Assembly (NCBI GenBank): GCA_965661345.1
Contig: CBFIDK010000004.1
Coordinates: 7,503-71,502, forward strand
Source of the DNA: Flavobacteriales bacterium
Lineage (GTDB): Bacteria > Bacteroidota > Bacteroidia > Flavobacteriales > UBA7312
Reading direction: 5' to 3'
DNA length: 64,000 nucleotides
The notes under the pieces were generated by a model. That model had not been told where the DNA came from. It worked only from the letters and a program-made list of their open reading frames with translations, and did no database searches. Shown piece by piece: positions 15,579 to 64,000 of the stretch; position 1 is the stretch's first letter, and each line of letters opens with the position of its first letter. The position numbers and the translations under genes are program-made.

Positions 15579-15579
15579 A

Positions 15580-30201: not shown

Positions 30202-30398
30202 TTTAATTTGGGTTTAAGTTAATGTTTCCCCTTAATAGAAAGGGGTTTTGATTGGGTAGTTAGGTGCTACCACACATGACTTTTAGCTTTTTCAGTCTTT
30301 GGTTAAAAGATCATAATGCAAGTTAGTATTTTATATGAATTAATTTCTAGGCAAATATGCCTGCGCAATTATTTGGTGCTATTTGCATTTTTGATTTC

Positions 30399-30650: not shown

Positions 30651-30657
30651 CTATTTT

Positions 30658-31698: not shown

Positions 31699-31753
31699 TT
31701 TAGTTAAAAAGACTATTTTTGAAGTCAAATTTAAACTAACTAACTCACATACT

Positions 31754-32893: not shown

Positions 32894-32931
32894 ATGAATT
32901 GTTATATATTTAGAAAAAATTAAGTTTCATT

Positions 32932-35439: not shown

Positions 35440-35443
35440 ATTA

Positions 35444-37729: not shown

Positions 37730-37734
37730 TTCAT

Positions 37735-37768
37735 AAAAAAACCCCAATAAAAAATTGGGGTTTAATTG
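37735..37768 (-). terminator. Rho-independent terminator after gldJ
   Basis: Minus strand: ACCCCAAT-TTTT-ATTGGGGT followed by TTTTTTT. Confidence 0.6.
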
Positions 37769-37780
37769 ATTTAAAAAATA

Positions 37781-39355: not shown

Positions 39356-39385
39356 AATTTAAATGGTTTTCTGAATCTTTAATAA

Positions 39386-40408: not shown

Positions 40409-40575
40409 TCGACTATATAAATAGTTACTAGCTAACAAAAATATAAAAATATTCTTATGAACTTTCATCCAACAGAATATTAAATAATAATATTTAACAA
40501 AATTACGTTTTAATGCATATCAAGTCGTGAGTGACATAATAAATTTAGTAGTAAATTTGAACTTCAATAGGCAGT

Positions 40576-43500: not shown

Positions 43501-44289
43501 AATTACGACTTTGGTAAGGGTAAAATTAGTTTGTACGCCAAAGGAGTTGTAAATGGAGAGAAAATTGACGCTTCTGGATTTAGTAATGAAATAATAATTG
43601 GGGGAACTGCTGATGATTATTCAGTTGATAATTTAGGGCCTGAAATACAGTTATTCATTAACGATACAAATTTTGTGAGAGGCGGAATAACCAATAATAA
43701 CCCAAATTTATTCGCCTTACTTTATGATGAAAACGGCATTAATACAGTTGGAAACGGAATAGGACACGATATGACTGCCGTATTAAACCAAGAATCTTCT
43801 AATCCAATAGTACTTAACGATTTTTACGAATACGATATTGATAGTTATCAAAGTGGAGTTATAGAATATCCTTTTTCAAATTTAGAAGAAGGAACACACA
43901 CACTGACGGTTAAAGTTTGGGATGTCTTCAATAATTCATCCGAAAGTACAACAGAATTTAAAGTGATATCGGCCCAGAATTTGACCATTCAAAACTTAAT
44001 TAATTATCCAAACCCAGTAGTTGATTTTACATCCTTTTATTTTGAACACAATCAGTCTGATTTAGACATGAAAGTCAATTTGGTAATAATGGATCTAACT
44101 GGTAAGGTTGTGAAAGTTATCGAAGATAATTTGAAGCCAGTAGGGTTTAGATACGGACCACTTGAATGGGATGGAAAATCAACAGAAGGTAATAAGTTAG
44201 ATAGTGGAATATATATTTATAATATTGTCGCAAAGGCTAGTGATGGCGAAGTTTCAACAAAGTCAGGACGACTAATACTAATAGACTAA
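40576..44289 (+). CDS. porU: Type IX secretion system C-terminal signal peptidase/sortase PorU (C25 peptidase-like)
   Basis: 1237 aa. Size, position upstream of porV, and its own C-terminal tail (LINYPNPVVDFTSFYF...). Confidence 0.8.
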   Translation: MRPLYFFVLFFSSISLFSQDSKYFFLDWSYADSVPVVNNSSSYFLDFDQTFDDHSKHFILEVKEPLFVDCNELETNFLKNLDVTSTVKLTHNFGIERKKLRIKGSIFPFILEDGTYKKMVFCELSTTFDNSTPQARSSLASAENSVLSSGNWYKISVAESGIYRLSYQNLVDLGINVAGINPADIRLYGRPGGMLPTSNSEPRIDDLEELSIQVFGQTDGSFDENDFIIFYGQSPHKWQESSGKFSRQMHLFEEETYYFLTTDFGIGKRIAPQNSESTSDVTIISFNDYKIHENDEVNFVKSGKNWYGDVFDIVNSRTYNFNFPNRIGTSNLKLVLAARAKSPYSSTFTVNSSGMNEEISSVSGVYGSYNYANTKTIEKELNPNTDNIQVQLDFSSTSSTGKGWIDYIEVNAERELKMNGNQMLFRSLSSVHPEYISQFEISNANSDLVVWDVTYPLNPKSQNRNIQGTKATFSLKTDTLKEFIAFNGGYKNVKLIGEVANQNLHALQDIDYLIVSHPIFLSEANRLANFHKSKGLAVEVVTPQQIYNEFSAGSQDVSAIRDFAKMLYNNENPLKYMLLFGDASFDPKNREIQNTNFIVSYQSSNSTNSLYSYVSDDFFAILDEGESIDDDNPQLPFLDIGVGRFPVQTIEQAQNSVNKVINYNTEQSFGDWRLRLCFVGDDNDEIETVHTGQAEQLADYIALEHPNMNVDKIYLDAYEQETSTGGQRCPTANTAISNAVNQGMFLINYTGHGGELGWAHERILGIEDIYSWNNENNLPLFMTATCEFGRYDDPERISAAEHAFLKEKGGAIALLTTSRVVFTNYNLDLNESFLESLFPQNGEDMPRLGDVLMRTKNNVNDIEDSNHRNFTLLGDPALTLAYPVYDVVLTEVLDSAKALGQVTVSGEVQRNGEKVEEFEGFVFPTVFDKRTDFQTLGQDESPVLVFDLQKNKLFNGKSTVANGEFSFTFIVPKDINYDFGKGKISLYAKGVVNGEKIDASGFSNEIIIGGTADDYSVDNLGPEIQLFINDTNFVRGGITNNNPNLFALLYDENGINTVGNGIGHDMTAVLNQESSNPIVLNDFYEYDIDSYQSGVIEYPFSNLEEGTHTLTVKVWDVFNNSSESTTEFKVISAQNLTIQNLINYPNPVVDFTSFYFEHNQSDLDMKVNLVIMDLTGKVVKVIEDNLKPVGFRYGPLEWDGKSTEGNKLDSGIYIYNIVAKASDGEVSTKSGRLILID

Positions 44290-44346
44290 TATCTCCGTTA
44301 TTAAAGTTTATATTTTATATTTGTAACCAACTTTTTTTCATATTCA

Positions 44347-45540
44347 ATGAAACAACTTAAAATTATTTTAGCCATACTTCCTTTTGTGTTATGCAGCAAG
44401 TATTCTCTAGCTCAGCAGAATATTAATATTGATAATAAGTTCAGACTTAACACTATAACCACTGCAGTACCTTTCTTAATAATAAGTCCAGACGCCAAAG
44501 CTGGAGGAATGGGAGATGTTGGTGTAGCATCAGCTCCAGACGCAATGTCAATGCACTGGAATCCAGCAAAATATGCCTTTGTAAAAGACGATATTGGTTT
44601 TTCAGTATGCTATACCCCTTGGTTAAAAGCTTTGGTACCAGATATCAATTTATCTTATTTGACGGCCTACAAAAGATTGAACGAAAACGAGGTGCTTGGC
44701 TTTTCAATGAGGTATTTTAGCTTAGGAGAGATAAACTTTACAGATAATAACAATAATCCATTAGGATCCTTTAATCCAAATGAGTTTTCATTAGACGGTG
44801 CTTACGCCTTAAAATTATCACCAAATTTTTCAACCGGTGTAGCACTTCGATATGTTTACTCAAACCTAACAGGTGGTCAGCAAGTAGGAACTTTAGCTAC
44901 TAAAGCAGCGCACACTGTTGCCGGAGACTTTTCAAGTTTTTATACCAAAGAAATTCGTTTAGCTAGTCAAGATATGATATGGTCAACGGGGATTAACATC
45001 TCAAATATTGGGGGCAAAGTTTCATATACTGAAACAATCGATAAAGATTTTATCCCAGCGAACTTAAGAATAGGTTCTTCTTTAAGCACTTCAATTGATG
45101 AATACAATGAAATTTCATTTGAATTTGATATAAATAAGTTACTAGTGCCAACACCGCCCATTTACAATGACGATAGCGAAATCATTAGTGGTTTAGACTC
45201 TGATGTATCAGTTATAAGTGGTATTATTCAATCTTTTTATGATGCTCCAGCTGGAGACCGTGAAGTTAGAGAACTTATCTACTCAATGGGAGCAGAATAT
45301 TGGTATGACAAGCAATTTGCTATACGTTCTGGTTTCTTTTACGAACATCCTTCAAAAGGAGATCGTCAATTTTTTACTCTAGGTGCAGGAGTTCGATATA
45401 ATGTGTTTGGACTAGATTTCTCATATTTAATACCTTTACAAAGTCGTGATGAGGTAAATGCGGTTAACCCATTATCTAATACATTACGATTTGCCTTAAC
45501 ATTTGATTTCAGTGCGCTTGATACTGAAGTAGACAACTAG
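44347..45540 (+). CDS. porV: Type IX secretion system outer-membrane shuttle protein PorV
   Basis: 397 aa. ...ITTAVPFLIISPDAKAGGMGDVGVASAPDA... signature. Confidence 0.85.
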   Translation: MKQLKIILAILPFVLCSKYSLAQQNINIDNKFRLNTITTAVPFLIISPDAKAGGMGDVGVASAPDAMSMHWNPAKYAFVKDDIGFSVCYTPWLKALVPDINLSYLTAYKRLNENEVLGFSMRYFSLGEINFTDNNNNPLGSFNPNEFSLDGAYALKLSPNFSTGVALRYVYSNLTGGQQVGTLATKAAHTVAGDFSSFYTKEIRLASQDMIWSTGINISNIGGKVSYTETIDKDFIPANLRIGSSLSTSIDEYNEISFEFDINKLLVPTPPIYNDDSEIISGLDSDVSVISGIIQSFYDAPAGDREVRELIYSMGAEYWYDKQFAIRSGFFYEHPSKGDRQFFTLGAGVRYNVFGLDFSYLIPLQSRDEVNAVNPLSNTLRFALTFDFSALDTEVDN

Positions 45541-45545
45541 AAGAT

Positions 45546-46025
45546 TTGAATATACGCATAGGATATGGATATGATGTTCACCAGTTAAGAGACGGTGAAG
45601 AATTTGTGCTAGGAGGAGTTACAGTACCACATTCAAAAGGAGCTGTAGGCCATTCGGATGCAGACGTTTTAATTCATACTTTTTGTGATGCTATTTTGGG
45701 CGCAGCCAATATGCGAGATATAGGCTTTCACTTTCCAGACACCTCTGAAGACTACAAAGGCATTGATAGTAAGATATTACTATCAGAGGTGATGAAGTTA
45801 GTAAGGGGAAAAGGGTTTGAACTTATAAATATTGATTCGACTGTTTGCCTTGAAAAACCAAAGGTTAACCCCCATATTCCAAAGATGCAAGAAGTCCTTG
45901 CCAATTGCATGTCAGTTGAGCCTAATCAAATCTCCATAAAAGCTACAACGTCAGAAAAGATGGGTTTTGTTGGAACAGAAAAGGGCATAGCAGCACATGC
46001 CGTAGCCTTATTAAAGATTGTTTAG
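45546..46025 (+). CDS. ispF: 2-C-methyl-D-erythritol 2,4-cyclodiphosphate synthase
   Basis: 159 aa. IRIGYGYDVH...GHSDADVLIH motifs. Confidence 0.9.
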   Translation: MNIRIGYGYDVHQLRDGEEFVLGGVTVPHSKGAVGHSDADVLIHTFCDAILGAANMRDIGFHFPDTSEDYKGIDSKILLSEVMKLVRGKGFELINIDSTVCLEKPKVNPHIPKMQEVLANCMSVEPNQISIKATTSEKMGFVGTEKGIAAHAVALLKIV

Positions 46026-46259
46026 GTAGATTTTCATTCCTTTCTTTAGTACATTTTTACCAAAGTTATCAAGAGTAATTTCGATGGTTTTATTAGTTAT
46101 TGATACTTCAATCACTGATGCATAGAAAAAGTGGTTATTATTTTCTGCCACACGAACATTGGTTCCGATGTCACTGATGCCATTGTTTTTTCCAATTACC
46201 TTAATAGCGCCACCACATACGGTGTAAAGACTTGATATTGTGCAGATTTCATTTTCCAT
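46011..46259 (-). CDS. Hypothetical protein
   Basis: 82-aa ORF only. Confidence 0.35.
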   Translation of the reverse strand: MENEICTISSLYTVCGGAIKVIGKNNGISDIGTNVRVAENNNHFFYASVIEVSITNKTIEITLDNFGKNVLKKGMKIYLNNL

Positions 46260-46265
46260 TGGTAT

Positions 46266-46300
46266 AAAAAAAGGCTCATTAATATATTCAATAGCCTTTT
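46266..46300. terminator. Bidirectional-looking terminator hairpin
   Basis: AAAGGCT...AGCCTTT stem flanked by an A-run and a T-run. Confidence 0.5.
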
Positions 46301-46302
46301 CG

Positions 46303-46365
46303 GAGCTAACTATTACGTCACCAAGTTTATTGGAAATGATAATATAAAGCGGAGTATTATTCTAT
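46303..46365. repeat. Hairpin repeat family 2, copy B (stem degraded)
   Basis: GAGCTAACTATTACGTCACCAAGTTTATTGGAAATGATAATATAAAGCGGAGTATTATTCTAT. Confidence 0.7.
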
Positions 46366-46386
46366 GGTATCTTGCATACCCGAGAA

Positions 46387-46518
46387 TTATTTAATTTCTT
46401 TATCATTAGCTTCGGCTTCCTCTTGTGATTTATGGCCCCAATTAATCATATAAAACAGACCAATTAAATAAATTGAGAAAATTATAAAGCCGACGATGAA
46501 CATTGATTTTGACAACAT
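46387..46518 (-). CDS. Possible 43-aa membrane peptide
   Basis: Own translation: MLSKSMFIVGFIIFSIYLIGLFYMINWGHKSQEEAEANDKEIK*. Directly downstream of the 65-aa membrane ORF. Confidence 0.35.
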   Translation of the reverse strand: MLSKSMFIVGFIIFSIYLIGLFYMINWGHKSQEEAEANDKEIK

Positions 46519-46520
46519 AA

Positions 46521-46718
46521 CTATTCTTTATTGTTAAAAAAATCATTTCTTCTTTGTCTCAAAGCAACAGCAAATAATAAAATAGTTGCTGGCCAATGGG
46601 CTGAATACTGTGCAGACTCTAAATCCCCACTTAGACCTAGAAAAATTGAATATAACATGGCGAAAAATGCTAAGATAATAGGATAATAAACTTTTATAAA
46701 ATCTGATAATTTATTCAC
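46521..46718 (-). CDS. Small membrane protein
   Basis: 65 aa, two hydrophobic segments. Confidence 0.45.
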   Translation of the reverse strand: MNKLSDFIKVYYPIILAFFAMLYSIFLGLSGDLESAQYSAHWPATILLFAVALRQRRNDFFNNKE

Positions 46719-46786
46719 TTTAGTTATTGTTAGAGATTAGAGTGTACAATATACTGCTTTTTAAACAATGATATAACCTTTTGTGA

Positions 46787-46895
46787 CTAACAAATACCTC
46801 CCTAAGTTTATTGTGAGGGATAAAATAGTTTGGGATGTGATAAAAAAACCCCCACTAAAAAGTGAGGGTTTAGAATTTATTGAAGTATCAGTTTA
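46787..46895. repeat. Left copy of a ~108-bp direct repeat (family-2 hairpin variant + terminator + T9SS-tail stop remnant)
   Basis: CTAACAAATACCTCCCTAAGTTTATTGTGAGGGATAAAATAG...AAAAACCCCCACTAAAAAGTGAGGGTTTAGAATTTATTGAAGTATCAGTTTA. Confidence 0.75.
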
Positions 46896-46898
46896 CTA

Positions 46899-47549
46899 TT
46901 AATTTATTTCTCGTTTAATACTGCAACCTTTAGCATTTGTTTCTTTTAGCTTAATATCTACTCCTTCAACCATCTGTTCAATGGCATCTAATAAATATGT
47001 TTCTTTTACCTGTGAAATATCTCGGAAATTATCATCTATAGCGCCTTTATAAACTAGCGTTTTATTTTTATCGAACAAATAGATATGTGGAGTAGTTTTA
47101 GCTCCAAAAGCATTAGCTACTGCACTATTTTGATCAATTAAGTAAGGGAAAGTATAACCCATGCTTTTTGCATGATTTTTCATTGCTTCTGCTGAATCGT
47201 CGCCATCGCGTTTAGCTTCATTGGAATTAATGTATACCATTCCAACATTATTAATTTGACACATTTTTTCTAGTTGTCTATAGCGATCTTCCCACATTAC
47301 AACAAAAGGGCAGGTGTTACAGCTAAAAACAACTAATAATCCGTTTTCATTAAAATTGCTATTTAATGACATTTTTTCATCAGTCACGTTAATCATTAAT
47401 TCTTCAGACATAGGAATAATTGCACCCAATTCCAGTGAACTATTTTTTTGTGCAATAGAGCTATTACAAATTAAGGTAAAAACAACTAATAAAAAAGTTG
47501 TTTGTATTGTATATGGTGTTTTCATAATTGAATAGTTAAGTTGCTTCAA
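46899..47549 (-). CDS. Secreted thioredoxin-fold (redoxin/TlpA-like) protein
   Basis: 216 aa. Signal peptide. VVFSCNTCPFV CxxC motif. Confidence 0.8.
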   Translation of the reverse strand: MKQLNYSIMKTPYTIQTTFLLVVFTLICNSSIAQKNSSLELGAIIPMSEELMINVTDEKMSLNSNFNENGLLVVFSCNTCPFVVMWEDRYRQLEKMCQINNVGMVYINSNEAKRDGDDSAEAMKNHAKSMGYTFPYLIDQNSAVANAFGAKTTPHIYLFDKNKTLVYKGAIDDNFRDISQVKETYLLDAIEQMVEGVDIKLKETNAKGCSIKREIN

Positions 47550-47609
47550 ATCTAATAATTAAAATTGAATGGGGAAGTACAATAAATTACTTACAAAAGA
47601 CCTTAGGAG

Positions 47610-47716
47610 CTAACTATTACGTCACTAAGTTTATTGGTAGTGATAAGATAGAGTGGGGCGTAATAAAAACCCCCACTTAAAAGTGAGGGTTTGGAATTTA
47701 TTGAAGTATCAGTTTA
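47610..47716. repeat. Right copy of the ~108-bp direct repeat
   Basis: CTAACTATTACGTCACTAAGTTTATTGGTAGTGATAAGATAG...AAAAACCCCCACTTAAAAGTGAGGGTTTGGAATTTATTGAAGTATCAGTTTA. Confidence 0.75.
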
Positions 47717-47835
47717 TGATTACTAATTCCACCAGAGGTTTTAATTGTTAGGTTATAAATACCTCTAGAACAGTTTGATAAATCTATTTGAGTATTATAC
47801 TCTACAATAGATTGATTTGATTCAAAATAAACCCC
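47698..47835 (-). pseudogene. Relic of a T9SS C-terminal sorting tail
   Basis: Own translation: GVYFESNQSIVEYNTQIDLSNCSRGIYNLTIKTSGGISNHKLILQ*. No start codon; upstream in-frame stop at 47836-47838. Confidence 0.45.
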
Positions 47836-47986
47836 TCAATCTACTAGAGATAAGGGGTTTGTTTTTAGTAGATAAATCTATCGAAATATCGAACATCCGT
47901 TTTACTCGAACAGATTTTTTAATCACATTAAAAGTGATTAATCTTATTTTGGAAGATGATTGTTGATCATGATTTAAACTTTTTTA

Positions 47987-49012
47987 TTAATCAACCTTGT
48001 TAAGATAGGATTCAATTGATTTTGCAGTATCCAAAACAGTCTTTTTAAAGGGTATGGGATTCCAATCAAATGTTTTCATTGTTAAGGATACATCACCATT
48101 ATATGTTTTGCCAATAAAAGATCTCATACTTTTTGCTTCTCTATCAAAATTACCAATAAAATTTAGTAAAAAGTTTGGAGCCAACCTTGTACTTACGTTA
48201 TCATAACCATTGGATTTAAGTATTTTGGCTAATTCCTGAAAAGCGAAAGGTTCTTCAGTTGTAACAATAAATCTTTTTCCGGCTGCTTTTTCATTTTCAA
48301 GCGCTAGCACATGTATTTTAGCAATATCTCTTACGTCGGACATATTAATTGCAGCTTGAGGAACCATTGGCATTTTTCCTGACATCATTTGCTTAAACAT
48401 ACCCATTGAAGCTCCTGATAAATCACCCGAAAGCGTTGGGCCAAAAACAGGACCTGGATTCACAACAGTAAGTTCCATTGGTGTTGCATCGGTTTGAGCA
48501 TTAATAAAGTCCCAAGCAGCCCGCTCTGCCAAGGTTTTGCTTTTTGCATACGTAGAAACATTTTTTGCTTTTACGTTTGTCCATGATTTCGAATCGACTT
48601 TGATAGATTTATCAGCATTTTCTAACATAGAAACCATTGATGAAGTTAAAACAACCCTTTTAATGCCGGCCTTTTTAGCAGCATTTAGTGCTCTCATTGT
48701 GCCGTCGACTGCAGGTCTTATATATTCATTTTCATCTTTCGGCTCGATATTGATAAATGGAGAGGCTACGTGCATTACAAACTCACATCCCTTCATTGCA
48801 TCATCCCAACCATCATCATTTAGCAAGTCCAGCTCACAAAATTCTAAATTATCTTTTGGATCAACTTCTTTTTTAATTGCGTCAATAACCTTTTCAGATT
48901 TTGATAAACTTCTAACGGATCCACGGACTGAATATCCATTTTTCAATAATTCGACGGCACAATGATTTCCTATGTAGCCTGAAATTCCTGTTAATAAAAC
49001 TTTTTTATTCAT
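47987..49012 (-). CDS. NAD-dependent epimerase/dehydratase-family reductase (extended SDR)
   Basis: 341 aa. LLTGISGYIGNH Rossmann motif, YAKSK catalytic motif. Confidence 0.85.
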   Translation of the reverse strand: MNKKVLLTGISGYIGNHCAVELLKNGYSVRGSVRSLSKSEKVIDAIKKEVDPKDNLEFCELDLLNDDGWDDAMKGCEFVMHVASPFINIEPKDENEYIRPAVDGTMRALNAAKKAGIKRVVLTSSMVSMLENADKSIKVDSKSWTNVKAKNVSTYAKSKTLAERAAWDFINAQTDATPMELTVVNPGPVFGPTLSGDLSGASMGMFKQMMSGKMPMVPQAAINMSDVRDIAKIHVLALENEKAAGKRFIVTTEEPFAFQELAKILKSNGYDNVSTRLAPNFLLNFIGNFDREAKSMRSFIGKTYNGDVSLTMKTFDWNPIPFKKTVLDTAKSIESYLNKVD

Positions 49013-49102
49013 TGGATAGTTTATTTATTATTACTTTAGATTTGGAAGTAAAAATAATAAAATTACTATTGTTTTGATAGTAATAATTATATTTTTATAA
49101 TT

Positions 49103-49525
49103 ATGTCATTTATAGATAAGTTTTTTAGGTGTGATTGTCCTGTTACTTCAGCAATAGATATTGTTGGAGACAAATGGACGCTTGTTGTTTTAAAATTGAT
49201 GCTATTAGAACATAAAAAAACGTTTAAAGAGTTTTCTGAAAGCGATGAATCAATTGCACCAAGTATTTTGTCTAATAGGCTAAAATCACTCGAGAAGATG
49301 GAGTTTATTGTCAAGCAAAAATTACCTGACAATCATAAAACAAATCACTATTTTCTGACCGAAAAAGGACTTTCGTTAACTCCTGTTATAATTGAGTTAG
49401 CCTTGTGGAGCCATCACAATATTAAACCTGTCGATAATCAAGACTTAGCAAATTTTAAGGATAAAAACGAATTACGCCTTGCAATCATTGAAAGATATAA
49501 ATCAAAAACGGTTACACTATTATAG
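49103..49525 (+). CDS. HxlR-family transcriptional regulator
   Basis: 140 aa. CPVTSAIDIVGDKWTLVVLKLML...KTFKEF signature. Divergent from the reductase gene. Confidence 0.85.
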   Translation: MSFIDKFFRCDCPVTSAIDIVGDKWTLVVLKLMLLEHKKTFKEFSESDESIAPSILSNRLKSLEKMEFIVKQKLPDNHKTNHYFLTEKGLSLTPVIIELALWSHHNIKPVDNQDLANFKDKNELRLAIIERYKSKTVTLL

Positions 49526-49547
49526 TATAACCGTTCTATTGTTTTAG

Positions 49548-49620
<73 letters not shown>

Positions 49621-49628
49621 ATGTGCGG

Positions 49629-49636
49629 CAAATATA
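49629..49636 (-). promoter_or_regulatory. -7 promoter box TATATTTG for tRNA-Met
   Basis: TAnnTTTG match 9 nt upstream of the tRNA 5' end. Confidence 0.45.
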
Positions 49637-49713
49637 CACTAAAATTATTTTATTGATTCATTTTCACTTCCTCTTTTTAAGAGCCTATTAAAATAATGTA
49701 CTTTTGCACGCTT

Positions 49714-51669
49714 ATGATTTCAGCAAGCAACATATCGGTTTATTTCGGTGGACAAGAACTATTCGACGATGTCTCATTTATGGTCAACAAAGGAGACCGT
49801 ATTGGATTGGTTGGAAAGAACGGCGCTGGAAAATCAACTTTATTAAGAATTTTATCAGGTGAACAAAAACCAAATGAAGGCTCAATTTCTACGCCTAACG
49901 ACTCTACCATAGGTTATTTAAGACAGGATTTGGAATTTGAAGAAGGCAGAACAGTACAAGAGGAAGCCGAACAAGCCTTTCAGGAAATAAAAAAACTGGA
50001 GCAGGCCATCAATGCCATTAACCTTGAAATGAGTGAACGAACCGATTACGAGAGTGACGGATATATGCAGCTTATAACCGATTTGAACGATTTAAATGAA
50101 CGCTTCGGAATGTTAGGAGGGTACACCATTCAGTCTGAAATGAGTCAAGTTTTAATAGGTTTGGGTTTTCAGCTAGATGATTTTGAAAGGCAAACCAATG
50201 AGTTTAGTGGAGGCTGGAGAATGCGACTTGAGTTAGCCAAAATACTATTAAGTAAGCCAGACGTTTTGTTGCTTGATGAGCCAACAAACCACTTAGATAT
50301 TGAATCCATAATGTGGCTCGAAGGATGGTTAAAGAATTATTCAGGTGCAGTTATTTTAGTCTCACACGACAGAGCATTTTTAGATGCAGTAACCAATAGA
50401 ACCATTGACTTAATTTTAGGAAAAGCTAACGATTACAAGGCCAGTTATTCCAAGTACGTAGAACTCAGAAAAGACAGACAAGAAAAACAAATCCAGTCTA
50501 AGAAGAATCAAGACAAAGAGATAAAGCAAACCAAAATGCTTATCGAAAAGTTTAGAGCAAAGAAGAGCAAAGCCTCTTTTGCGCAGAGTTTGATAAAAAA
50601 ACTCGATAAAATGGACCTCATAGAAGTAGAGCAAGACGATACTGCTTCAATGTATTTTAAGTTTCCGCCAGCTCCACATTCTGGAAAAGTAACTTTAAAG
50701 GTCTCCAAGGCATCTAAAAATTACGATGATTTACAGGTGCTGAAAGACGTTTCTTTAATGCTTGAGCGAGGTGATAAAATTGCTTTTGTTGGGAAAAATG
50801 GAGAAGGGAAAACCACCCTGTCAAAAATGATTGTGAATGTTATCGATTATGACGGTGAAATAGAATATGGTTATCAAGTCAAAGTGGGGTATTATGCTCA
50901 AAATCAATCAGAATTACTAGACGAAAATAAAAGCATTTTTGAAGTAGTTGAAGATGCTGCCGACGAACACAGTCGACCTAGAGTTAGAGATATGCTAGGC
51001 TCATTTTTATTTAGTGGCGATACTGTCCAGAAAAAAGTGAAAGTCCTTTCAGGAGGAGAAAGAGCAAGAGTAGCCTTGTGTAAGTTATTGTTAGAACCGG
51101 TCAACTTACTTATTATGGATGAGCCCACTAACCACTTGGATATGGTCTCAAAAGATATTCTGAAAAGAGCTTTGAAAAACTATGACGGGACATTAATTAT
51201 TGTATCTCACGACAGAGATTTCTTAGAAGATTTAACGGAAAAAGTATACGAATTCAAGGACAAAAACATTAAAGAATACATAGGTGACATTAATAACTTT
51301 TTAGGAGAGAAGAAAGTTCAAGATTTTACCCAATTTGAATTAGAAAATAAACAAAAGAGTAAAGTCAAGAAGTCTGATGATTCAGACAGTAAGCAAACCT
51401 TTAACGAGCATAAACAGCTTGATAAAGATATTCGAAAAGTAACTAATAAAGTCGGGCAACTTGAAAAAGCCGTAGAGCGTCTAGAAAAAGAGTTGAAAGA
51501 ATTAGATCAAGAATTAGCAAAGCCCGAACGCTACAAAGAGTTATCTTCGCGAAAAGGTTTTTTTGAATCCTATCAAGACAAGCAAAACGAACTAAGTCAA
51601 AAAATGATGACTTGGGAAGAGTCAACAGAACTTTTAGAAGAGCTAAAACAAAAACGTTCAGTACTATAA
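49714..51669 (+). CDS. ABC-F family ATPase (two ABC domains, C-terminal coiled coil)
   Basis: Two Walker A sites (GKNGAGKST, GKNGEGKTT) and two LSGG signatures. Start set at MISASNISVYFGG because a TACTTTTG -7 box lies at 49699-49706. Confidence 0.9.
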   Translation: MISASNISVYFGGQELFDDVSFMVNKGDRIGLVGKNGAGKSTLLRILSGEQKPNEGSISTPNDSTIGYLRQDLEFEEGRTVQEEAEQAFQEIKKLEQAINAINLEMSERTDYESDGYMQLITDLNDLNERFGMLGGYTIQSEMSQVLIGLGFQLDDFERQTNEFSGGWRMRLELAKILLSKPDVLLLDEPTNHLDIESIMWLEGWLKNYSGAVILVSHDRAFLDAVTNRTIDLILGKANDYKASYSKYVELRKDRQEKQIQSKKNQDKEIKQTKMLIEKFRAKKSKASFAQSLIKKLDKMDLIEVEQDDTASMYFKFPPAPHSGKVTLKVSKASKNYDDLQVLKDVSLMLERGDKIAFVGKNGEGKTTLSKMIVNVIDYDGEIEYGYQVKVGYYAQNQSELLDENKSIFEVVEDAADEHSRPRVRDMLGSFLFSGDTVQKKVKVLSGGERARVALCKLLLEPVNLLIMDEPTNHLDMVSKDILKRALKNYDGTLIIVSHDRDFLEDLTEKVYEFKDKNIKEYIGDINNFLGEKKVQDFTQFELENKQKSKVKKSDDSDSKQTFNEHKQLDKDIRKVTNKVGQLEKAVERLEKELKELDQELAKPERYKELSSRKGFFESYQDKQNELSQKMMTWEESTELLEELKQKRSVL

Positions 51670-52550
51670 TGGAACATAAAGCAGGTTATGTAAATATCAT
51701 CGGCAATCCAAATGTTGGAAAGTCAACCTTGATGAATGCGCTTGTAGGCGAACGCTTGTCAATAATTACCTCAAAAGCTCAAACTACTCGTCACAGAATT
51801 TTAGGAATTGTCAACGATGAAGAACATCAAATAATTTTTTCAGATACGCCAGGTGTGATTGATCCAGCTTATAAGTTGCAAGAAAACATGATGGATTTTG
51901 TTCACGGTGCTTTTCAAGATGCTGACATCTTAATATACATGGTGGAAATTGGAGAAAGAGAGCTCAAAAGTGAAACGCTATTTGAACGACTTAAAAACAC
52001 AGAAATTCCATTACTTCTTTTGCTCAATAAGATTGATAAAGTAGAGCAAGAATATGTAAAAGAACAAATTAACCTTTGGAAAGAACGCTTGCCAAAGGCT
52101 GAAATTCATCCTATTTCGGCATTAAATAAATTTAATATTGATTTAGTGATGGAAAGAATCAAGAAATCACTTCCTGTTTCACCTCCCTATTTTGACAAGG
52201 ATACTTTGACCGATAAGTCTGAACGCTTTTTTGTTGGTGAAACCATCAGAGAGAAAATTTTAAAGTATTACAAAAAGGAAATACCCTATTCGGTTGAAAT
52301 TGAAGTCGAAGAGTTTTTTGATGAGAAAGAAATAATAAAAATACGCGCCATAATTTTTGTAGCTAGAGAGTCTCAAAAGGGCATAATCATTGGGCACAAA
52401 GGAATAGCTTTGAAAAAAGTGGGTACTTTAGCCCGAAGAGATATGGAATCGTTTTTCCAGAAAAAGATATTTTTAGATTTGTATGTCAAAGTCAATAAAG
52501 ACTGGCGTAACGATGATAAACAACTTAAACGTTTCGGTTATAACAACTAA
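51669..52550 (+). CDS. era: GTPase Era
   Basis: MEHKAGYVNIIGNPNVGKSTLMN start overlapping the upstream stop (TAATG). C-terminal KH domain. Confidence 0.9.
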   Translation: MEHKAGYVNIIGNPNVGKSTLMNALVGERLSIITSKAQTTRHRILGIVNDEEHQIIFSDTPGVIDPAYKLQENMMDFVHGAFQDADILIYMVEIGERELKSETLFERLKNTEIPLLLLLNKIDKVEQEYVKEQINLWKERLPKAEIHPISALNKFNIDLVMERIKKSLPVSPPYFDKDTLTDKSERFFVGETIREKILKYYKKEIPYSVEIEVEEFFDEKEIIKIRAIIFVARESQKGIIIGHKGIALKKVGTLARRDMESFFQKKIFLDLYVKVNKDWRNDDKQLKRFGYNN

Positions 52551-52557
52551 TCAATAG

Positions 52558-53862
52558 ATGGGAAATATAGTAGCAATAGTAGGTCGGCCAAACGTTGGTA
52601 AATCAACGTTTTTCAATAGACTAATTCAGAAGCGACAAGCTATTGTTGACTCTGTTAGTGGTGTAACTAGAGACAGGCATTACGGCATAACGGATTGGAA
52701 TGGAAAAGACTTTTCCGTTATTGATACGGGAGGATATATTGTAGGGTCTGATGATATATTTGAAGAAGAGATTCGCAAGCAAGTCGATTTAGCCATTGAC
52801 GAAGCAAACGCCATTTTATTTTTAGTAGATGCTCAGGAGGGTGTAACCGAAATGGATCTGACCGTTGCCAAGCATTTAAGGAAGTCCGATAAGCCTGTGT
52901 TTCTCGTTGCCAATAAAGTGGATAATGGAAAAATTTTGCAAGAGGCGGTAGAATTATATTCTCTTGGAATGGGAGATTACTTCTGTATTTCTTCCATAAA
53001 TGGTAGCGGAACAGGAGAATTGTTGGATGAATTGGTAAGTAAATTGCCAGACACTGAAAAAGTAGAAGAAAGTGATTTACCTCGTTTTGCTATAGTAGGC
53101 CGACCAAATGTTGGCAAATCGTCTTTTGTAAACGCATTAGTAGGAGAGGAAAGAAACATAGTTACCGACATTGCAGGAACTACTCGAGATTCATTGGATA
53201 CGCACTATACAAAATTTGGTCACGATTTTGTGTTGGTGGATACGGCAGGAGTTAGAAAAAAGAAGAATGTCAGTGAAGATTTGGAGTTTTACTCCGTAAT
53301 GCGTTCGATTCGTTCTATTGAATATTCAGATGTATGCTTGTTGATTATAGATGCTACTTTAGGCTTTGAATCTCAAGATCAAAATATTTTTCACTTAGCG
53401 GATAAAAACAACAAAGGCATTGTCATATTGGTAAACAAATGGGATTTGGTTGAAAAAGATACCCATACCACCAAAGAATATGAAGCAGCTATTCGACAGA
53501 AAATAGCGCCTTTTACGGATGTGCCTATTCTCTTTATTTCTGCATTGACAAAACAGCGTTTATTGAAAGCATTGGAAATTGCTATAAAAGTATCTCAAGA
53601 CAGAAAAGTTAGAATTAGCACCTCTAAACTGAATGACGTTATGTTGCCATTTATAGAGCAAAATCCGCCGCCAGCAACAAAAGGAAAATACATACGAATA
53701 AAGTTTTGTACTCAGTTGCCTACAAAAACACCAACCTTTGCCTTTTTTGCCAATCTACCTCAATACATTAAAGACCCTTACAAAAGGTACATAGAGAACA
53801 AACTTAGAGAGAGTTTCGATTTTACGGGTGTTCCTATTCAAATATTCTTTAGAAAGAAGTAG
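52558..53862 (+). CDS. der: Ribosome-biogenesis GTPase Der (EngA), tandem GTPase domains
   Basis: GRPNVGKST occurs twice. 434 aa. Confidence 0.9.
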
Positions 53863-53863
53863 T

Positions 53864-55153
53864 CTAAAGATTAAACGCTTCTTTAACTTTATCTAAATAG
53901 TCTAATTTTTCCCAAGTAAAGGTTTCAAGGGTCATTTCTTGATGTTGTCCATTAACATTGAATACGAATGTTTTGGTTTCGGGTGTTCTTCCCATGTGTC
54001 CATAGGCAGCCGTCTCTTGATAAATAGGTGTCTTTAGTTTTAGACGCTCAATAATAGCTGCAGGTCGCATATCAAAAATAGTAGATACTTTTTCGGCGAT
54101 TTCGCCATCGGACAAGCTGGTTTTATTGGTTCCATAGGTATCTACAAAAATTCCCATTGGCTTGGCTACTCCAATAGCGTAAGACACTTGTACCAACACT
54201 TGTTTGCACAATCCTGCTGCTACTAAGTTTTTTGCAATATGCCTGGTGGCGTAAGCTGCAGAACGGTCTACTTTTGAAGGGTCTTTTCCAGAAAAAGCGC
54301 CTCCGCCGTGGGCACCTTTACCACCATAAGTATCCACAATAATTTTTCGACCCGTTAAACCCGTATCGCCATGGGGTCCACCAATTACGAATTTACCAGT
54401 AGGATTTACGTGGTATTTCTCCGTTCCGAAAAGCACTTGTTGTCTTTTTTCTAATTGGGCTAACACTCTAGGGATAAGAATGGTTTTCACATCATTTTCT
54501 ATCTGTGTTTGCATGGATTTTTCAGCAGCGGCTTTAGAAGCAGCTGTGTCGTCTTGAGGCAATATAAACTCATCATGTTGGGTTGAAACAACAATTGCTT
54601 CAATGCGTTGAGGAATATTGTCGTCGCTGTATTCAATAGTAACTTGAGATTTTGAGTCTGGGCGCAAATAGGTCATTTCCTTCCTCTCCCTTCTAATATT
54701 TGCCAATTCAATAAGAATACGATGAGATAAGTCCAAAGCCAAGGGCATGTAGTTATCCGTTTCGTCTGTAGCATAGCCAAACATCATGCCTTGGTCACCA
54801 GCGCCTTGTTCGGCATGTAACCCTTTGTTTTCTTCAACGCCTTGATTTATATCTGCTGACTGCTCATGTATGGCTGAAATAACGCCGCAACTATCAGCAT
54901 CAAATTGATATTCGGACTTGTTGTAACCTATCTTTCGAATGACGTCTCTAGCAATGTTTTGCACATCAACATATGCTTTCGTTTTTACTTCTCCACTCAG
55001 TACAGTAAGTCCTGTTGTTACCAATGTTTCACACGCTACTTTTGCTTCTTTGTCTTGCGCAAGAAAGTTATCTAATAGTGCATCAGAAATTTGGTCAGCT
55101 ACTTTATCTGGATGTCCTTCTGAAACTGATTCTGAGGTGAAAAAATATGCCAT
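53864..55153 (-). CDS. metK: S-adenosylmethionine synthetase
   Basis: [24 protein letters not shown]..., [21 protein letters not shown] motifs. Confidence 0.95.
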
Positions 55154-59879: not shown

Positions 59880-61046
59880 TTAATCTGTTTTTTGAACTAT
59901 GATACTTACTGCATTTCCACCAAATCCGACAGCATTAATTAGTATGCTTTTAGGAGCACTTTGTTTTTGAGTAATTTCGGTGTCGTATGGAAACTGTATC
60001 AAATGTTTTCTGTTAAGCATTTCAACAGCTAAGTCTAAACTTATACCTCCAGATGCGCCAAAAGTATGACCGCTTTGGTGTTTTGTGCTTATTAAATGGG
60101 GTGTCTGTTCGCCAAAAACAGAAGTAATAGCCGTATGTTCGGATTGATCACCTAAGATAGTCCCTGGTGCGTGCATTACTATTGCATCCACGGTTTTTAG
60201 CTTACTGTCATCAAGTGCCATTTGCATACTCTTTTTTAAACAACTGGCATCTGCGGACAATGAGGCGGGGTGTTCAATTTTTTCGGTGGCGTATCCTAAT
60301 CCAATTATCTTGGCTAAGTGTTCTTGTCCTTGGTCGGATTCTAGGCAAAAAACGGCAGCACCTTCTCCAAGAACCATATTATTTTTTGTATTCCCTTTTT
60401 TCATAGGACTGCAATACCAGCCTGATGTGTTTTTACTGTACACCCCTAATGATCGCATTTGGGAAATGGTAAAGTCAGTGAGTGGTGCTTCTGTACCTCC
60501 GGCAATAAATTTATCGGTCATGCCACTTTTTATCCAAACGCAAGCGTTCAAAATTGAATGAAGGGCTGTGCTGCACGTTATAGAGTGGGTAAGCGTTGCG
60601 CCTTCTGTTCCAAAATCGAAAGCCATCCAAGAGGCAATGTTTCCTAGGGTTGTAGTTGGCGAGGTTAAGGGTGAAATTCTCTGATTAGGGGAGTTAATAA
60701 AATGGGCGTGGTATTTTTCGAAAAGTTGTGTAGCTCCTCTTGAAGATCCCATATTTATTCCAACCGTTGAAAGGTTTGTCCAATTAGCCTTAGATAAAGT
60801 GTTTCTTCCGGCAATAATACCCATCAGTACACTTTTATCTAACCGTCTATACAGTGGGTTTTCTTTTCTCAAATCATCAATGAGTGCTAGAGTTTCCGCT
60901 TGCAGCCTGCCAGTTGGGGTATCCATATCGTTGAAGCAACAAATGGACAAATTCGTTTTTTGACTAAGGTAGTTTGCCCATATTTCATCGCTATTATGCC
61001 CAAGTGCGGATAAGCTAGATTTTGATGTAATGAGTATTGATTGCAT
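59880..61046 (-). CDS. Beta-ketoacyl synthase, KAS I/II-like (Cys-His-His), embedded in the biotin operon
   Basis: 388 aa. HSITCSTALHS (active-site Cys), VMHAPGT (His), SGHTFGASG (His). Confidence 0.8.
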   Translation of the reverse strand: MQSILITSKSSLSALGHNSDEIWANYLSQKTNLSICCFNDMDTPTGRLQAETLALIDDLRKENPLYRRLDKSVLMGIIAGRNTLSKANWTNLSTVGINMGSSRGATQLFEKYHAHFINSPNQRISPLTSPTTTLGNIASWMAFDFGTEGATLTHSITCSTALHSILNACVWIKSGMTDKFIAGGTEAPLTDFTISQMRSLGVYSKNTSGWYCSPMKKGNTKNNMVLGEGAAVFCLESDQGQEHLAKIIGLGYATEKIEHPASLSADASCLKKSMQMALDDSKLKTVDAIVMHAPGTILGDQSEHTAITSVFGEQTPHLISTKHQSGHTFGASGGISLDLAVEMLNRKHLIQFPYDTEITQKQSAPKSILINAVGFGGNAVSIIVQKTD

Positions 61047-61061: not shown

Positions 61062-62327
61062 CTATTCAATTTTTTCTAGAGCTGAAAGTATGCTTTTATA
61101 TACCGTTTTTAGTTCACTTTCTTTTATGCAATAGGGTGGTATAATATATATCACATTTCCCAATGGTCGAAGTATGACTCCTTGCTCAATAAAATGGGTA
61201 TAAAGCATGTCTTTTATTTGACTCGAATAACCAGTTTCGGACGTCTGAATATCCATTGCTAAGATGGTGCCTTCTTGTCTGACGTTTTTAAGTTTAGGAT
61301 GATTTTGTATACTTGAAGCAAAGTCTCTGTGTTGCTCAGCGATTTGCTTAATATTCTGTTGACACTCTTCTTTTTCGAGCAGTTCTAGGCTGGCAATAGC
61401 GGCGGTACAGCCAATTGGATTTGCCGTAAAAGAATGGCCGTGTAAAAACGCTTGACTAAGCGTATTGCCTAAAAATGAGTCGTAAATTTCGTTTGAGCAT
61501 GTCGTAATGGATAATGGCAATGTGCCTCCCGTTAAACTTTTGGATAAACACATAAAATCGACTTGCTCTGTCAATTGGTTACAGGCGAAAAATGTACCAG
61601 TTCTTCCGAAACCAGTCATGACTTCATCGGCAATACAAAGGACATCGTTTTCTTTGCAAAGCCTAATCATTTTATCTAGCGTTGAGGCAGAATACATTCT
61701 CATTCCAGAAGCGCCCTGAACAATGGGTTCAAAAATAAAACAAGCTATTTCTCCCTTTTCCAATTCGTTTTTTAAAGCCGATATGGCTTCTTTTTCATTT
61801 CCAGGAAAGGGCAAGTGGTTTACCGAAAATAAATACTCTTCAAATGGTTCAGAGAATATACTTTTTGCTCCTGCTGACATTGCGCCAAAGGTTTCGCCGT
61901 GGTAACCGCCTTCAAGAGCGAGAATACGGTGCTTTTTTTGGCCTTTATTTCTCCAATATTGAATACTCATTTTTAGCGCTATCTCAACGGCTGATGAGCC
62001 GTCCCCTGAAAAGAAAAATTTATGTTGATTTTTAGGCAAATGAGCGCTTAATTTTTCACACAGTTCAGTGGCGGGCTTGTGTGTAAAGCCAGCGAATAAA
62101 ACGTGCTCGAGTTCTAAAAGCTGTTGGCTAATTTTTTGGGCTATATAGGGGTGAGCATGGCCATGAATATTTACCCACCACGATGAAATAGCGTCAATAT
62201 ATTCTTTTCCGCTTTCATCGACTAACAAAGTGCCTTTTCCCTTAACAATTGGAATGGGTGTTGGAGCAGTCTTCATTTGAGTAAATGGATGCCAAATGTA
62301 TTTTTTATCGCTTTTGGATATTGTCAT
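61062..62327 (-). CDS. bioA: Adenosylmethionine-8-amino-7-oxononanoate aminotransferase
   Basis: 421 aa. Class-III aminotransferase; ...ADEVMTGFGRTG..., ...LSKSLTGG... (PLP lysine). Confidence 0.9.
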   Translation of the reverse strand: MTISKSDKKYIWHPFTQMKTAPTPIPIVKGKGTLLVDESGKEYIDAISSWWVNIHGHAHPYIAQKISQQLLELEHVLFAGFTHKPATELCEKLSAHLPKNQHKFFFSGDGSSAVEIALKMSIQYWRNKGQKKHRILALEGGYHGETFGAMSAGAKSIFSEPFEEYLFSVNHLPFPGNEKEAISALKNELEKGEIACFIFEPIVQGASGMRMYSASTLDKMIRLCKENDVLCIADEVMTGFGRTGTFFACNQLTEQVDFMCLSKSLTGGTLPLSITTCSNEIYDSFLGNTLSQAFLHGHSFTANPIGCTAAIASLELLEKEECQQNIKQIAEQHRDFASSIQNHPKLKNVRQEGTILAMDIQTSETGYSSQIKDMLYTHFIEQGVILRPLGNVIYIIPPYCIKESELKTVYKSILSALEKIE

Positions 62328-62938
62328 TAGAATGCCCCTTTTAATTGTTCAGCAACTTCTTTTATTGCGGCTTTGTTCACCGTTTTCATCTGTGGAATTC
62401 TGCCTAAACTGACTAAACCACTTTTTGATAGTATGATGTGTTCAGTATCTTTATTTTCTTCTCCATTAAACAAAATTCCTTTAATGGGAATCTTTCTATT
62501 TTTTAGTGCTTCTATACTCAACAAGGTATGGTTAATACTTCCCAGATAATGTTGGCTTATCAAAATGACTTTGATATTTAATTCTTTTATTAGGTCTATG
62601 ATGCAATCTTTATCGTTTAGAGGTACGAGAAGACCGCCAGCGCCTTCCACGACCAATGCATTTTTTGTTTTTGGAAGTTGGCACTTAGATAGCTCAATGG
62701 TTATGCTTTCCTTTTGGGCTGCTGCGTGAGGAGACATGGGCAATTTTAAACGGTAACTCTCTGGATGAAATTGGCTTTTTGTATTAGAAATTAAGTCCTT
62801 AACTTTTTGGCTGTCCGAATACTCCAATTCACCTGCTTGAATGGGTTTCCAATAATCTGCTTCAAGTGCTTCAACTACAATTGCAGAACTTACAGTCTTG
62901 CCAATTTCTGTTCCTATTCCTGTGATAAAGTACGTCAT
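62327..62938 (-). CDS. bioD: Dethiobiotin synthetase
   Basis: 203 aa. FITGIGTEIGKT P-loop, VEGAGG motif. Confidence 0.9.
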   Translation of the reverse strand: MTYFITGIGTEIGKTVSSAIVVEALEADYWKPIQAGELEYSDSQKVKDLISNTKSQFHPESYRLKLPMSPHAAAQKESITIELSKCQLPKTKNALVVEGAGGLLVPLNDKDCIIDLIKELNIKVILISQHYLGSINHTLLSIEALKNRKIPIKGILFNGEENKDTEHIILSKSGLVSLGRIPQMKTVNKAAIKEVAEQLKGAF

Positions 62939-64000
62939 ATTGTCAAATTGATAAGGTCACAAAGGGATGATATTTCATCTTTAGTATTAAAAGAATGTAG
63001 ACAAATTCGTATTCTTTCTGAGCCTTCCGCAACGGTAGGGTGAAGGATTGGCCTCACGTCAAAATCATTAGCTTGTAAATGATGTGCAAATTGTTTCGTT
63101 TGTACATTTCCACCTATCACGATACATTGTATTGCCGAATCGCTTGGAAGTAAATGTGGGTGTTTGCACAGTTGTTTAAACAGAGATATATTGTCAAGCA
63201 ATTTCGCTCTTTCCTCAGTTATTTTCACTTCATCATAGGCCCAAATTATCCGTTCTACAGAATGGGCTGAAAGAGCAGTAGTATAAATAAATGGCCTCGA
63301 AAAATTTATCAAGTAATCGATTAAAGTTTTGCTTCCTACAATGGCTGCCCCATGGCTTCCCATGGCCTTTCCGTATGTATATATTTTGGCAAAGCAAGTA
63401 ATATAATGCGCGAGTCCTTGTCCATAATTGCCAAATACACCCACCGCATGGGCTTCATCAATAATAAGTTTTGCATTATAGTTTTGGCACACGTTCATGA
63501 TTTCCTCAAGAGGTGCAAAGTCTCCGTCCATGGAATAAACGCTTTCTACAACGACATAGGTGGTGCCGCTTGCACGTTTTAGCTTTTCTTCGAGCTGTGA
63601 GGTGTCATTATGCTTAAAGGAAAAATTTCGAGCAACGCCTAATTTGATGCCATCTCGAATTGAAGCGTGGCATAACTGATCGTAAATTACGGTATCGTCT
63701 TTTTGAGGGACTGCTGAAAGTAAACCTAAGTTTGCCGAATATCCTGAATTAAACAATAGTGCTGATTCCGTTTGGTGGAAGTTGGCTATTTTCTTTTCGG
63801 CGCTTTCGTGAATGGGGCTGTTGCCACTAATTAAACGGCTTCCTGTTGAGCCAACAGATGCTGAACTGCTCCATTTTTTTGAGGAAAAACCCAAGTAATC
63901 ATTGGAACAGAAATCTATGGTAGATGAAGAAATGCTTAATTCTCGTAAGGCGTTTTTATTCTGTCTATCTGCTAAATTTTCGTGTAGCTTATCTTCTAGC
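62935..64000 (-). CDS. bioF: 8-amino-7-oxononanoate synthase (N-terminus beyond the window edge)
   Basis: The track ORF starts at an internal TTG (63894). Own translation shows the frame stays open upstream: LEDKLHENLADRQNKNALRELSISSSTIDFCSNDYLGFSS... PLP-lysine region TYGKAMGSHG. Confidence 0.9.
   Translation of the reverse strand, partial: LEDKLHENLADRQNKNALRELSISSSTIDFCSNDYLGFSSKKWSSSASVGSTGSRLISGNSPIHESAEKKIANFHQTESALLFNSGYSANLGLLSAVPQKDDTVIYDQLCHASIRDGIKLGVARNFSFKHNDTSQLEEKLKRASGTTYVVVESVYSMDGDFAPLEEIMNVCQNYNAKLIIDEAHAVGVFGNYGQGLAHYITCFAKIYTYGKAMGSHGAAIVGSKTLIDYLINFSRPFIYTTALSAHSVERIIWAYDEVKITEERAKLLDNISLFKQLCKHPHLLPSDSAIQCIVIGGNVQTKQFAHHLQANDFDVRPILHPTVAEGSERIRICLHSFNTKDEISSLCDLINLTI

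Follow-up and report, generated by a model that had tools for sequence, protein, structure and literature searches.

The origin of the pimeloyl moiety is a variable and incompletely mapped part of the biotin pathway, for which routes through BioC/BioH, BioI/BioW, BioZ and, since 2025, BioE have been solved. Here, a beta-ketoacyl synthase (KAS) encoded in the biotin (bio) operon of a Flavobacteriales bacterium was analyzed. The DNA comprises 64,000 nucleotides of contig CBFIDK010000004.1 (GenBank assembly GCA_965661345.1, positions 7,503 to 71,502 of the forward strand) and is referred to as the window; the enzyme is referred to as the bio-operon KAS. A sequence-only reading of the window had proposed that this enzyme of the KAS I/II type performs a dedicated condensation in pimeloyl synthesis. 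The proposal was supported by the model scores of the protein, the discreteness of its family, its linkage to bio genes among relatives, and a set of substitutions in its acyl pocket.

BioZ is a FabH-like KAS III of alpha-proteobacteria with a Cys-His-Asn active site (PMC7645780). It condenses glutaryl-CoA or glutaryl-acyl carrier protein (ACP) with malonyl-ACP and substitutes for BioC-BioH in E. coli; its product, 3-oxopimeloyl-ACP, is finished by housekeeping type II fatty acid synthesis despite the free carboxylate (PMC8024396, PMC12625853). The bio-operon KAS resembles BioZ in that a fatty acid KAS has been recruited into a bio cluster, in loci or genomes without bioC or bioH. The chemistry proposed here is also the same, namely the condensation of a C5 dicarboxylic primer with malonyl-ACP to 3-oxopimeloyl-ACP. 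However, the bio-operon KAS belongs to the KAS I/II type and carries Cys-His-His, not the Cys-His-Asn of a KAS III. In BioZ the glutaryl carboxylate is held by two serines and a lid loop sets the specificity, whereas the bio-operon KAS has an invariant Arg in place of the back-gate Ile of FabF. The taxa differ as well, with BioZ occurring in Rhizobiales and the bio-operon KAS in Flavobacteriales.

The nearest conceptual relative of the bio-operon KAS is the FabF-like DVU2563 of Desulfovibrio. The Desulfovibrio bio cluster was predicted in 2004 to include a FabF-like KAS (PMC545781), and transposon fitness data from 2023 showed that DVU2563 is required for biotin synthesis in a genome that lacks bioC and bioH (PMC10102598). 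The cluster DVU2560-DVU2563 encodes a FabZ-like protein, a FabG-like protein, a dedicated ACP and the FabF-like KAS. For this pathway, reported only from a few anaerobic phyla, the authors propose an elongation free of methyl esters in less hydrophobic active sites (PMC10102598). In both systems a FabF-type KAS stands amid bio genes (in Desulfovibrio between bioB and bioF/A/D), and neither bioC nor bioH was detected in the window or in the flanks of the KAS relatives. The Desulfovibrio KAS has its own ACP, reductase and dehydratases, whereas the Flavobacteriales KAS stands alone and had no dedicated ACP, FabG-like or FabZ-like partner in the window or flanks. The likeness of the two enzymes is drawn from their descriptions.

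Within the same bacterial class, a route through the diiron oxygenase BioE was described in 2025 for Weeksellaceae and some Flavobacteriaceae (PMC12704756, PMC12915131). BioE likewise provides the pimeloyl origin through a single dedicated early-step gene, but it is an unrelated ferritin-like protein that cleaves long acyl chains oxidatively between C7 and C8 and is regulated by the MocR-type BioL. Bacteroides, a member of the same phylum, has BioC together with BioG (PMC3494674). The sequence-only reading had correctly listed BioC/BioH, BioW/BioI and BioZ as known routes, but missed BioE and the Desulfovibrio FabF-like KAS. It was not aware of a characterized enzyme of this kind; for the concept, Desulfovibrio provides a precedent. 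The open-access full text of PMC and bioRxiv yielded no paper describing a KAS of the FabF type in the bio operons of Flavobacteriia, although an older mention in comparative genomics may exist. The lists of early-stage pimeloyl routes in the two BioE papers, both from December 2025, name no such KAS (PMC12704756, PMC12915131). A KAS dedicated to pimelate is an established idea, and this family, its stand-alone organization and its Arg-gated pocket appear to be uncharacterized.

The biotin operon and its conservation

All five genes of the operon are on the minus strand of the window, in the order bioF-bioD-bioA-KAS-bioB.

62935..64000, running past the window end, minus strand: bioF (8-amino-7-oxononanoate synthase), first gene of the operon; Pfam Aminotran_1_2, TIGR00858
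62327..62938, minus strand: bioD (dethiobiotin synthase); TIGR00347, 125.3 bits, above the cutoff of 83.3
61062..62327, minus strand: bioA (adenosylmethionine-8-amino-7-oxononanoate transaminase); TIGR00508, 555.2 bits, above the cutoff of 405
59880..61046, minus strand: ketoacyl synthase of 388 aa with KAS II fold; Pfam PF00109 and PF02801
58765..59850, minus strand: bioB (biotin synthase), last gene of the operon; TIGR00433, 394.2 bits, above the cutoff of 225

The gene order and the four junctions given in the sequence-only reading agreed exactly with the table of open reading frames (ORFs) and with a base-level reading. Overlaps of 4 nt and 1 nt were found between bioF and bioD and between bioD and bioA, respectively. 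Spacers of 15 nt separate bioA from the KAS gene and 29 nt the KAS stop codon from bioB. The place of bioF in the operon was confirmed, but its start needed correction: the ATG is located at 64000-64002, and its first two bases fall beyond the window edge. The full-length bioF, read from the identical metagenome contig L001, encodes 355 aa. TIGR00858 was the top NCBIfam model for bioF, with 332.5 bits under a cutoff of 426.45. Consensus scans for promoters and terminators inside the operon gave counts at or under the shuffle expectation and were uninformative.

The linkage of the KAS to bio genes was surveyed among relatives, a check that the sequence-only reading had suggested. Eighty metagenome loci were fetched with the family alignment, in addition to loci around individual members, and BioF, BioD, BioA and BioB were located in the KAS loci by tblastn. 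Collapsing the KAS sequences at 90% identity yielded 79 groups, and 39 loci offered at least 3 kb on both sides of the gene. Bio genes were present within 7 kb of the KAS in 36 of these 39 non-redundant loci. In 34 of the 39 a same-strand bio gene lay at most 300 nt away, and in being encoded in the biotin ring-assembly cluster the KAS agrees with BioZ. The median gap between KAS and bio gene was 76 nt over all 69 non-redundant loci with a same-strand bio gene. Six gene orders were observed in the 39 loci (F, D, A and B denoting the bio genes and K the KAS): FDAKB in 12, FDAK in 8, FDAKb in 7, KB in 6, BFDAK in 2 and DAK in 1, with the KAS alone in 3. Linkage was retained at 57% identity (L005, a complete genome of 2.1 Mb), at 45% identity (L007) and at 36% identity (L091), where bioA and the KAS gene overlap by one base. 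The link between the KAS and the bio genes is strong and evolutionarily robust.

An exhaustive search among 1.84 billion cluster representatives returned 368 clusters (50% identity) at E <= 1e-30. The best 150 clusters were 36-55% identical to the window KAS and nearly all 370-440 aa long, and as judged from these matches the family is discrete. The ORF did not arise by chance, because it has thousands of homologs with invariant catalytic residues. Named members are almost all Flavobacteriales, among them many cultured Flavobacterium species, Gillisia, Sediminicola, Changchengzhania, Lentiprolixibacter and Crocinitomicaceae; one metagenome-assembled genome of Marinimicrobia is also represented.

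In addition, the BioB of the window is 361 aa long, yet the match to the bioB model stops at residue 309. The C-terminal tail of ~50 residues (codons 58765-58920, minus strand) contains the motif KWSRP(T/G)HTIERN, which is also present in BioB of the divergent locus L061 (11218-12309).

Relation to FabF and the acyl pocket

The Cys-His-His motifs TCSTA, HAPGT and GHTFGASG named in the sequence-only reading were all located and assigned to codons. The catalytic residues are Cys158 (ITCSTAL, codon 60573-60575), His292 (HAPGT, codon 60171-60173) and His327 (GHTFGASG, codon 60066-60068), accompanied by Lys322 and a GFGG gate with Phe375. The protein shares with FabF (KAS II) and FabB (KAS I) the two-domain thiolase fold, the Cys-His-His set, the Lys, the GFGG loop and mostly basic ACP-docking positions. 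FabF was the best fold match of the AlphaFold model of the window KAS (pLDDT 95.9; TMq 0.92 at 21-25% identity) and also the nearest among solved structures by sequence (116 bits).

Despite this likeness, the scores of the protein were low. The best NCBIfam model for the window KAS was fabF (TIGR03150), on which it reached 157.6 bits, a third of the equivalog cutoff of 493.75. On the FabB model NF005935 it reached 85 bits compared with a cutoff of 630. For 53 relatives from across the family, no fabF E-value was better than 7e-53, which is far short of the cutoff. The identity of E. coli FabF to the family is only 20-30%, and the members are ~25 residues shorter than FabF through several deletions. 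The description of the protein as shorter than and diverged from a housekeeping FabF/FabB was thus borne out, with the window KAS and all 53 relatives under every equivalog cutoff. The genomic context differs as well: the bio-operon KAS sits in bio operons and was never encoded beside acpP or fab genes in 93 loci and the window. Judged by sequence, the bio-operon KAS is not a housekeeping FabF or FabB. Its NCBI name is only [quoted passage not shown].

AmcF is a ketosynthase-like protein that acts on a 2-oxoglutarate-derived starter. All 53 members matched the NCBIfam AmcF model ("cispentacin biosynthesis acyltransferase subunit") weakly, with a best E-value of 6.5e-27. The window KAS scored 72 bits against a cutoff of 325, and the similarity is probably generic.

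For the analysis of the acyl pocket, 404 family members were aligned with the E. coli FabF sequence, which was confirmed to be identical to PDB 6okg_A. FabF residues C163, H303, H340, K335, D311, E314 and F400 (GFGG loop) were kept in 100% of the members. Thirteen family-invariant positions depart from FabF, most of them around the acyl-binding region. The substitutions below are given with their share of the 404 members.

FabF I108 to Arg, 100%
FabF L111 to Thr, 98%
FabF V134 to Ser, 100%
FabF I138 to Thr, 99%
FabF A160 to Ser, 100%
FabF A162 to Thr, 99%
FabF L197 to Phe, 99%
FabF G198 to Thr, 95%
FabF G201 to Gln, 99%
FabF F202 to Met, 89%
FabF T305 to Pro, 100%

In the window KAS, three segments contain many of these positions.

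60729..60746, minus strand: signature SSRGAT, Ser101-Thr106; Arg103 (codon 60738-60740) corresponds to FabF Ile108 and Thr106 to Leu111
60648..60662, minus strand: Ser129-Thr133; Ser129 corresponds to FabF Val134 and Thr133 to Ile138
60456..60470, minus strand: Thr193-Met197, second side of the gate; Thr193 corresponds to FabF Gly198, Gln196 to Gly201 and Met197 to Phe202

We take FabF positions 111, 134, 138, 162 and 198 to line the acyl pocket, with V134 and I138 presumably reaching it from the partner subunit. The ACP-docking basic positions are mostly kept, with K/R at R68 in 80% and R/K at K128 in 85% of the members. In FabF, the back gate formed by I108 and F202 is situated where C7-C8 of a bound chain lie (PMC9006962). 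I108 is typical of FabF and is replaced by Gly in FabB and by Met in the mitochondrial enzyme, and the FabF variant I108F confines elongation to short chains (PMC9006962). Neither the hydrophobic tunnel with its Ile108-Phe202 back gate nor the Gly of FabB is found in the bio-operon KAS, where the position of Ile108 is occupied by Arg, and the gate and its neighbors become Arg, Met, Thr, Ser and Gln. The polar pocket with its invariant Arg would be expected to fit a short acyl group with a terminal carboxylate. As predicted from these residues, it could not accommodate the long acyl chains of a housekeeping elongating KAS.

Proposed reaction and alternatives

We consider it probable that the bio-operon KAS is a dedicated condensing enzyme of the biotin pathway, of FabF-type descent, that supplies the pimeloyl thioester for BioF. 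Its dedication to pimeloyl synthesis as such is very likely, and the use of primers with a free carboxylate is somewhat favored. In the proposed mechanism, Cys158 would accept the acyl primer, His292, His327 and Lys322 would decarboxylate malonyl-ACP, and the GFGG loop would act as a gate. The hydrophobic tunnel would have turned into a short polar pocket that is closed by Arg103 at the position of FabF Ile108. We infer that Arg103 forms a pair with the omega-carboxylate left free on a short dicarboxylic primer, and that the enzyme is independent of BioC/BioH. The committed step would most likely be the condensation of a glutaryl thioester (C5) with malonyl-ACP to 3-oxopimeloyl-ACP. Housekeeping FabG, FabZ and FabI would then reduce this product to pimeloyl-ACP, as they do downstream of BioZ.

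A C5 primer was favored because the carboxylate oxygens of a glutaryl group on Cys158 would lie at about the C6 position, within reach of an Arg at the C7-C8 gate. That glutaryl is the only primer used is possible but doubtful. An earlier round between malonyl and malonyl-ACP might make the route self-sufficient without methyl esters. It was considered because the polar changes A160S and A162T adjoin the active-site Cys, and because of the proposal for Desulfovibrio (PMC10102598); two rounds of condensation by the bio-operon KAS nevertheless seem rather unlikely. The most far-reaching version is similarly tentative. In this version, one stand-alone Arg-gated enzyme of the KAS II type would replace BioC and BioH, starting from a malonyl primer and proceeding from C3 to C5 and C7 while FabG, FabZ and FabI finish each round. 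Such a one-gene route would be free of methyl esters and independent of oxygen, and would be the main route of Flavobacteriia.

Several observations weigh against the dedicated condensing enzyme. A few members are solitary and located away from bio genes (L051, L070, L082, L084, L092 and L093), where they lie among unrelated housekeeping genes but never in lipid or polyketide clusters. The mapping of the pocket combines an alignment at ~25% identity with a predicted model, and the invariant change T305 to Pro close to the malonyl site is unexplained. Hydrogen bonds from the polar pocket to a methyl ester are conceivable as well. The usual primers of KAS I/II enzymes are acyl-ACPs; no source of glutaryl-ACP was evident, and the source of a glutaryl primer is unaccounted for in these often small genomes. 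Furthermore, a bioC plus esterase pair, or bioE, may be encoded elsewhere in the genome.

Among the alternatives, a function of the KAS within a pathway of the BioC/BioH type survived best, but it is improbable. The methyltransferase and esterase would then be encoded elsewhere, and the KAS would elongate the methyl esters of malonyl- and glutaryl-ACP, sparing FabF/FabB. The methyl ester of glutaryl-ACP is as long as a C7 acid and reaches the I108-F202 gate (PMC9006962), and the Thr/Ser/Gln/Arg pocket could hydrogen-bond the ester carbonyl. The BioC and BioG of Bacteroides in the same phylum (PMC3494674) speak for this alternative, and the genes read were those of the window and the KAS flanks. 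However, the 100% invariant Arg suits a carboxylate more naturally than a methyl ester, and E. coli handles methyl esters without a special KAS.

The search for partner genes also counted against a BioC/BioH-type pathway. In the window, Pfam was applied to positions 1..55000, where 41 ORFs reach 150 aa or more; several of these had no match. No S-adenosylmethionine (SAM) methyltransferase, P450, FabH-like protein, BioW-like protein or second KAS was detected among these 41 ORFs. The lone candidate was a generic alpha/beta-hydrolase (9178..10062), ~50 kb away. Within the window, and for ORFs of this length, the earlier statement that no gene of the bioC, bioH, bioG, bioW or bioI type is visible therefore holds. 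The ORFs in the KAS flanks were clustered all-against-all. Besides the four bio genes, the recurrent neighbors were a RecX-like protein encoded on the opposite strand and a small uncharacterized protein; the other clusters consisted of out-of-frame shadow ORFs within the KAS and bio genes and of ordinary neighbors. No ACP, FabG, FabZ, methyltransferase, esterase or ferritin-like partner recurred in the flanks. The absence of a recurrent methyltransferase or esterase extended over 79 distinct KAS loci, though bioC and bioG, where present, are mostly found clustered with other bio genes. E. coli BioC and BioH probes, of limited sensitivity, had no match in 1.24 Mb of KAS-flanking DNA. Neither an ACP nor a second KAS was present within ~10 kb in the 93 loci or in the window. 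For the BioE route, no unexplained recurrent neighbor of the size of BioE was seen in the flank clustering, which did not include a direct search with the BioE sequence.

Three candidates for additional pathway genes were tried and rejected. An AMP-ligase adjoining the KAS in two loci (L009 and L010) was considered as an activator of the dicarboxylate. It is a genuine acetate-CoA ligase (974-985 bits compared with a cutoff of 725, TIGR02188), which directly follows the KAS (L009 4156-6138, L010 1505-3442), with bioF or bioA fragments upstream. The KAS proteins of the two loci share 36-38% identity with the window KAS and belong to the small branch of the family that most resembles FabF; the synteny is probably coincidental. 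An acyl-CoA dehydrogenase in the window (31664..32893) was considered as a clue to glutaryl-CoA, but it scored below every cutoff, with acryloyl-CoA reductase as the top model. Gaps of 1.5-3 kb within some clusters contained unrelated insertions, namely membrane glycosyltransferase-like proteins, an ECF sigma factor with its neighbor, and a TraB/GumN-like protein. Separately, 12 loci of the Flavobacterium-type branch (e.g. L090 7414-7815, plus strand) encode a protein of ~134 aa with two C-terminal CxxC pairs (MKCPSCGADQ...YKCKKCSFEF) between bioF and bioD; this protein is absent from the window operon.

A role in biotin synthesis without chain building is less probable still. The KAS could act as a malonyl-ACP decarboxylase, as an acyltransferase that shuttles pimeloyl groups to BioF, or as a partner of, for example, BioE. 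KAS enzymes possess the decarboxylase and transacylase half-reactions, the T305 to Pro change near the malonyl site is invariant, the weak similarity to AmcF extends to all 53 members, and BioE is present in some Flavobacteriaceae. On the other hand, the Cys, both His, the Lys, the equivalents of Asp311 and Glu314 and the Phe of the GFGG loop are all 100% conserved. Neither a BioE-like nor any other partner recurs beside the KAS, and the similarity to AmcF is generic at 72 bits against a cutoff of 325.

The last alternative is a KAS of lipid or fatty acid synthesis that hitch-hikes in the bio operon, perhaps because fatty acid synthesis needs biotin. Such an enzyme could be a housekeeping one or an accessory one, for example for branched, hydroxy or pigment chains. 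The complete elongating-KAS catalytic set, the source annotation as 3-oxoacyl-ACP synthase II and the minority of solitary members among housekeeping genes speak for it, but it is very improbable. The protein is far under every FabF/FabB equivalog cutoff, and in none of 93 loci does it adjoin acpP or fab genes or those of polyketide or flexirubin-type pathways. The Arg at FabF position 108 in 404 of 404 members should block long chains, as I108F in FabF already does. Hitch-hiking is unlikely because the bio linkage survives six rearranged architectures and extends down to 36% identity.

Other features of the window and implications

The window has a GC content of ~33%. The gene for S-adenosylmethionine synthetase (metK, 53864-55153, minus strand) is preceded in its 5' leader by a SAM-II riboswitch aptamer (55192-55249, minus strand; Rfam, 55.6 bits with a gathering score of 44); the bio operon ends ~3.6 kb upstream of this aptamer. 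A large serine recombinase (Resolvase and Recombinase domains, 18919-20538, plus strand) ends in or abuts tRNA-Val (20495-20572, minus strand). Upstream of it are several ORFs without Pfam match, and at 8-12 kb the GC content falls to 0.27-0.29; the region may be a mobile element integrated at the tRNA site. Consecutive genes for a type I cysteine dioxygenase, a PLP-dependent decarboxylase and a sodium:solute symporter (4981-8486, plus strand) look like a cysteine-sulfinate cassette of the hypotaurine/taurine type, which is unusual as an operon in Flavobacteriales. Type IX secretion genes at 39386-45540 encode PorP/SprF, a C25 peptidase of 1237 aa (PorU-like) and PorV. Along with the GC content, they agree with the assignment of the window to Bacteroidota/Flavobacteriales.

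Flavobacteriia are reported to rank with the main producers of biotin in aquatic communities, and ~69% of the surveyed genomes contain all four late genes (PMC9561691). The pimeloyl source of most Flavobacteriia is not stated in the open-access papers searched. The KAS family is a testable candidate: it is present in genetically tractable Flavobacterium species that are in culture, and a specific structural prediction can be made, namely that the omega-carboxylate is bound by Arg103 at the position of the FabF back gate. If the proposed function is true, the family would represent a second, independent recruitment of a fatty acid condensing enzyme to biotin synthesis, from KAS II as opposed to the KAS III of BioZ. 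The SSRGAT signature would then correct the mis-annotation as "FabF" and predict biotin prototrophy from metagenomes, and the enzyme would provide a compact one-gene module for biotin or pimelate engineering.

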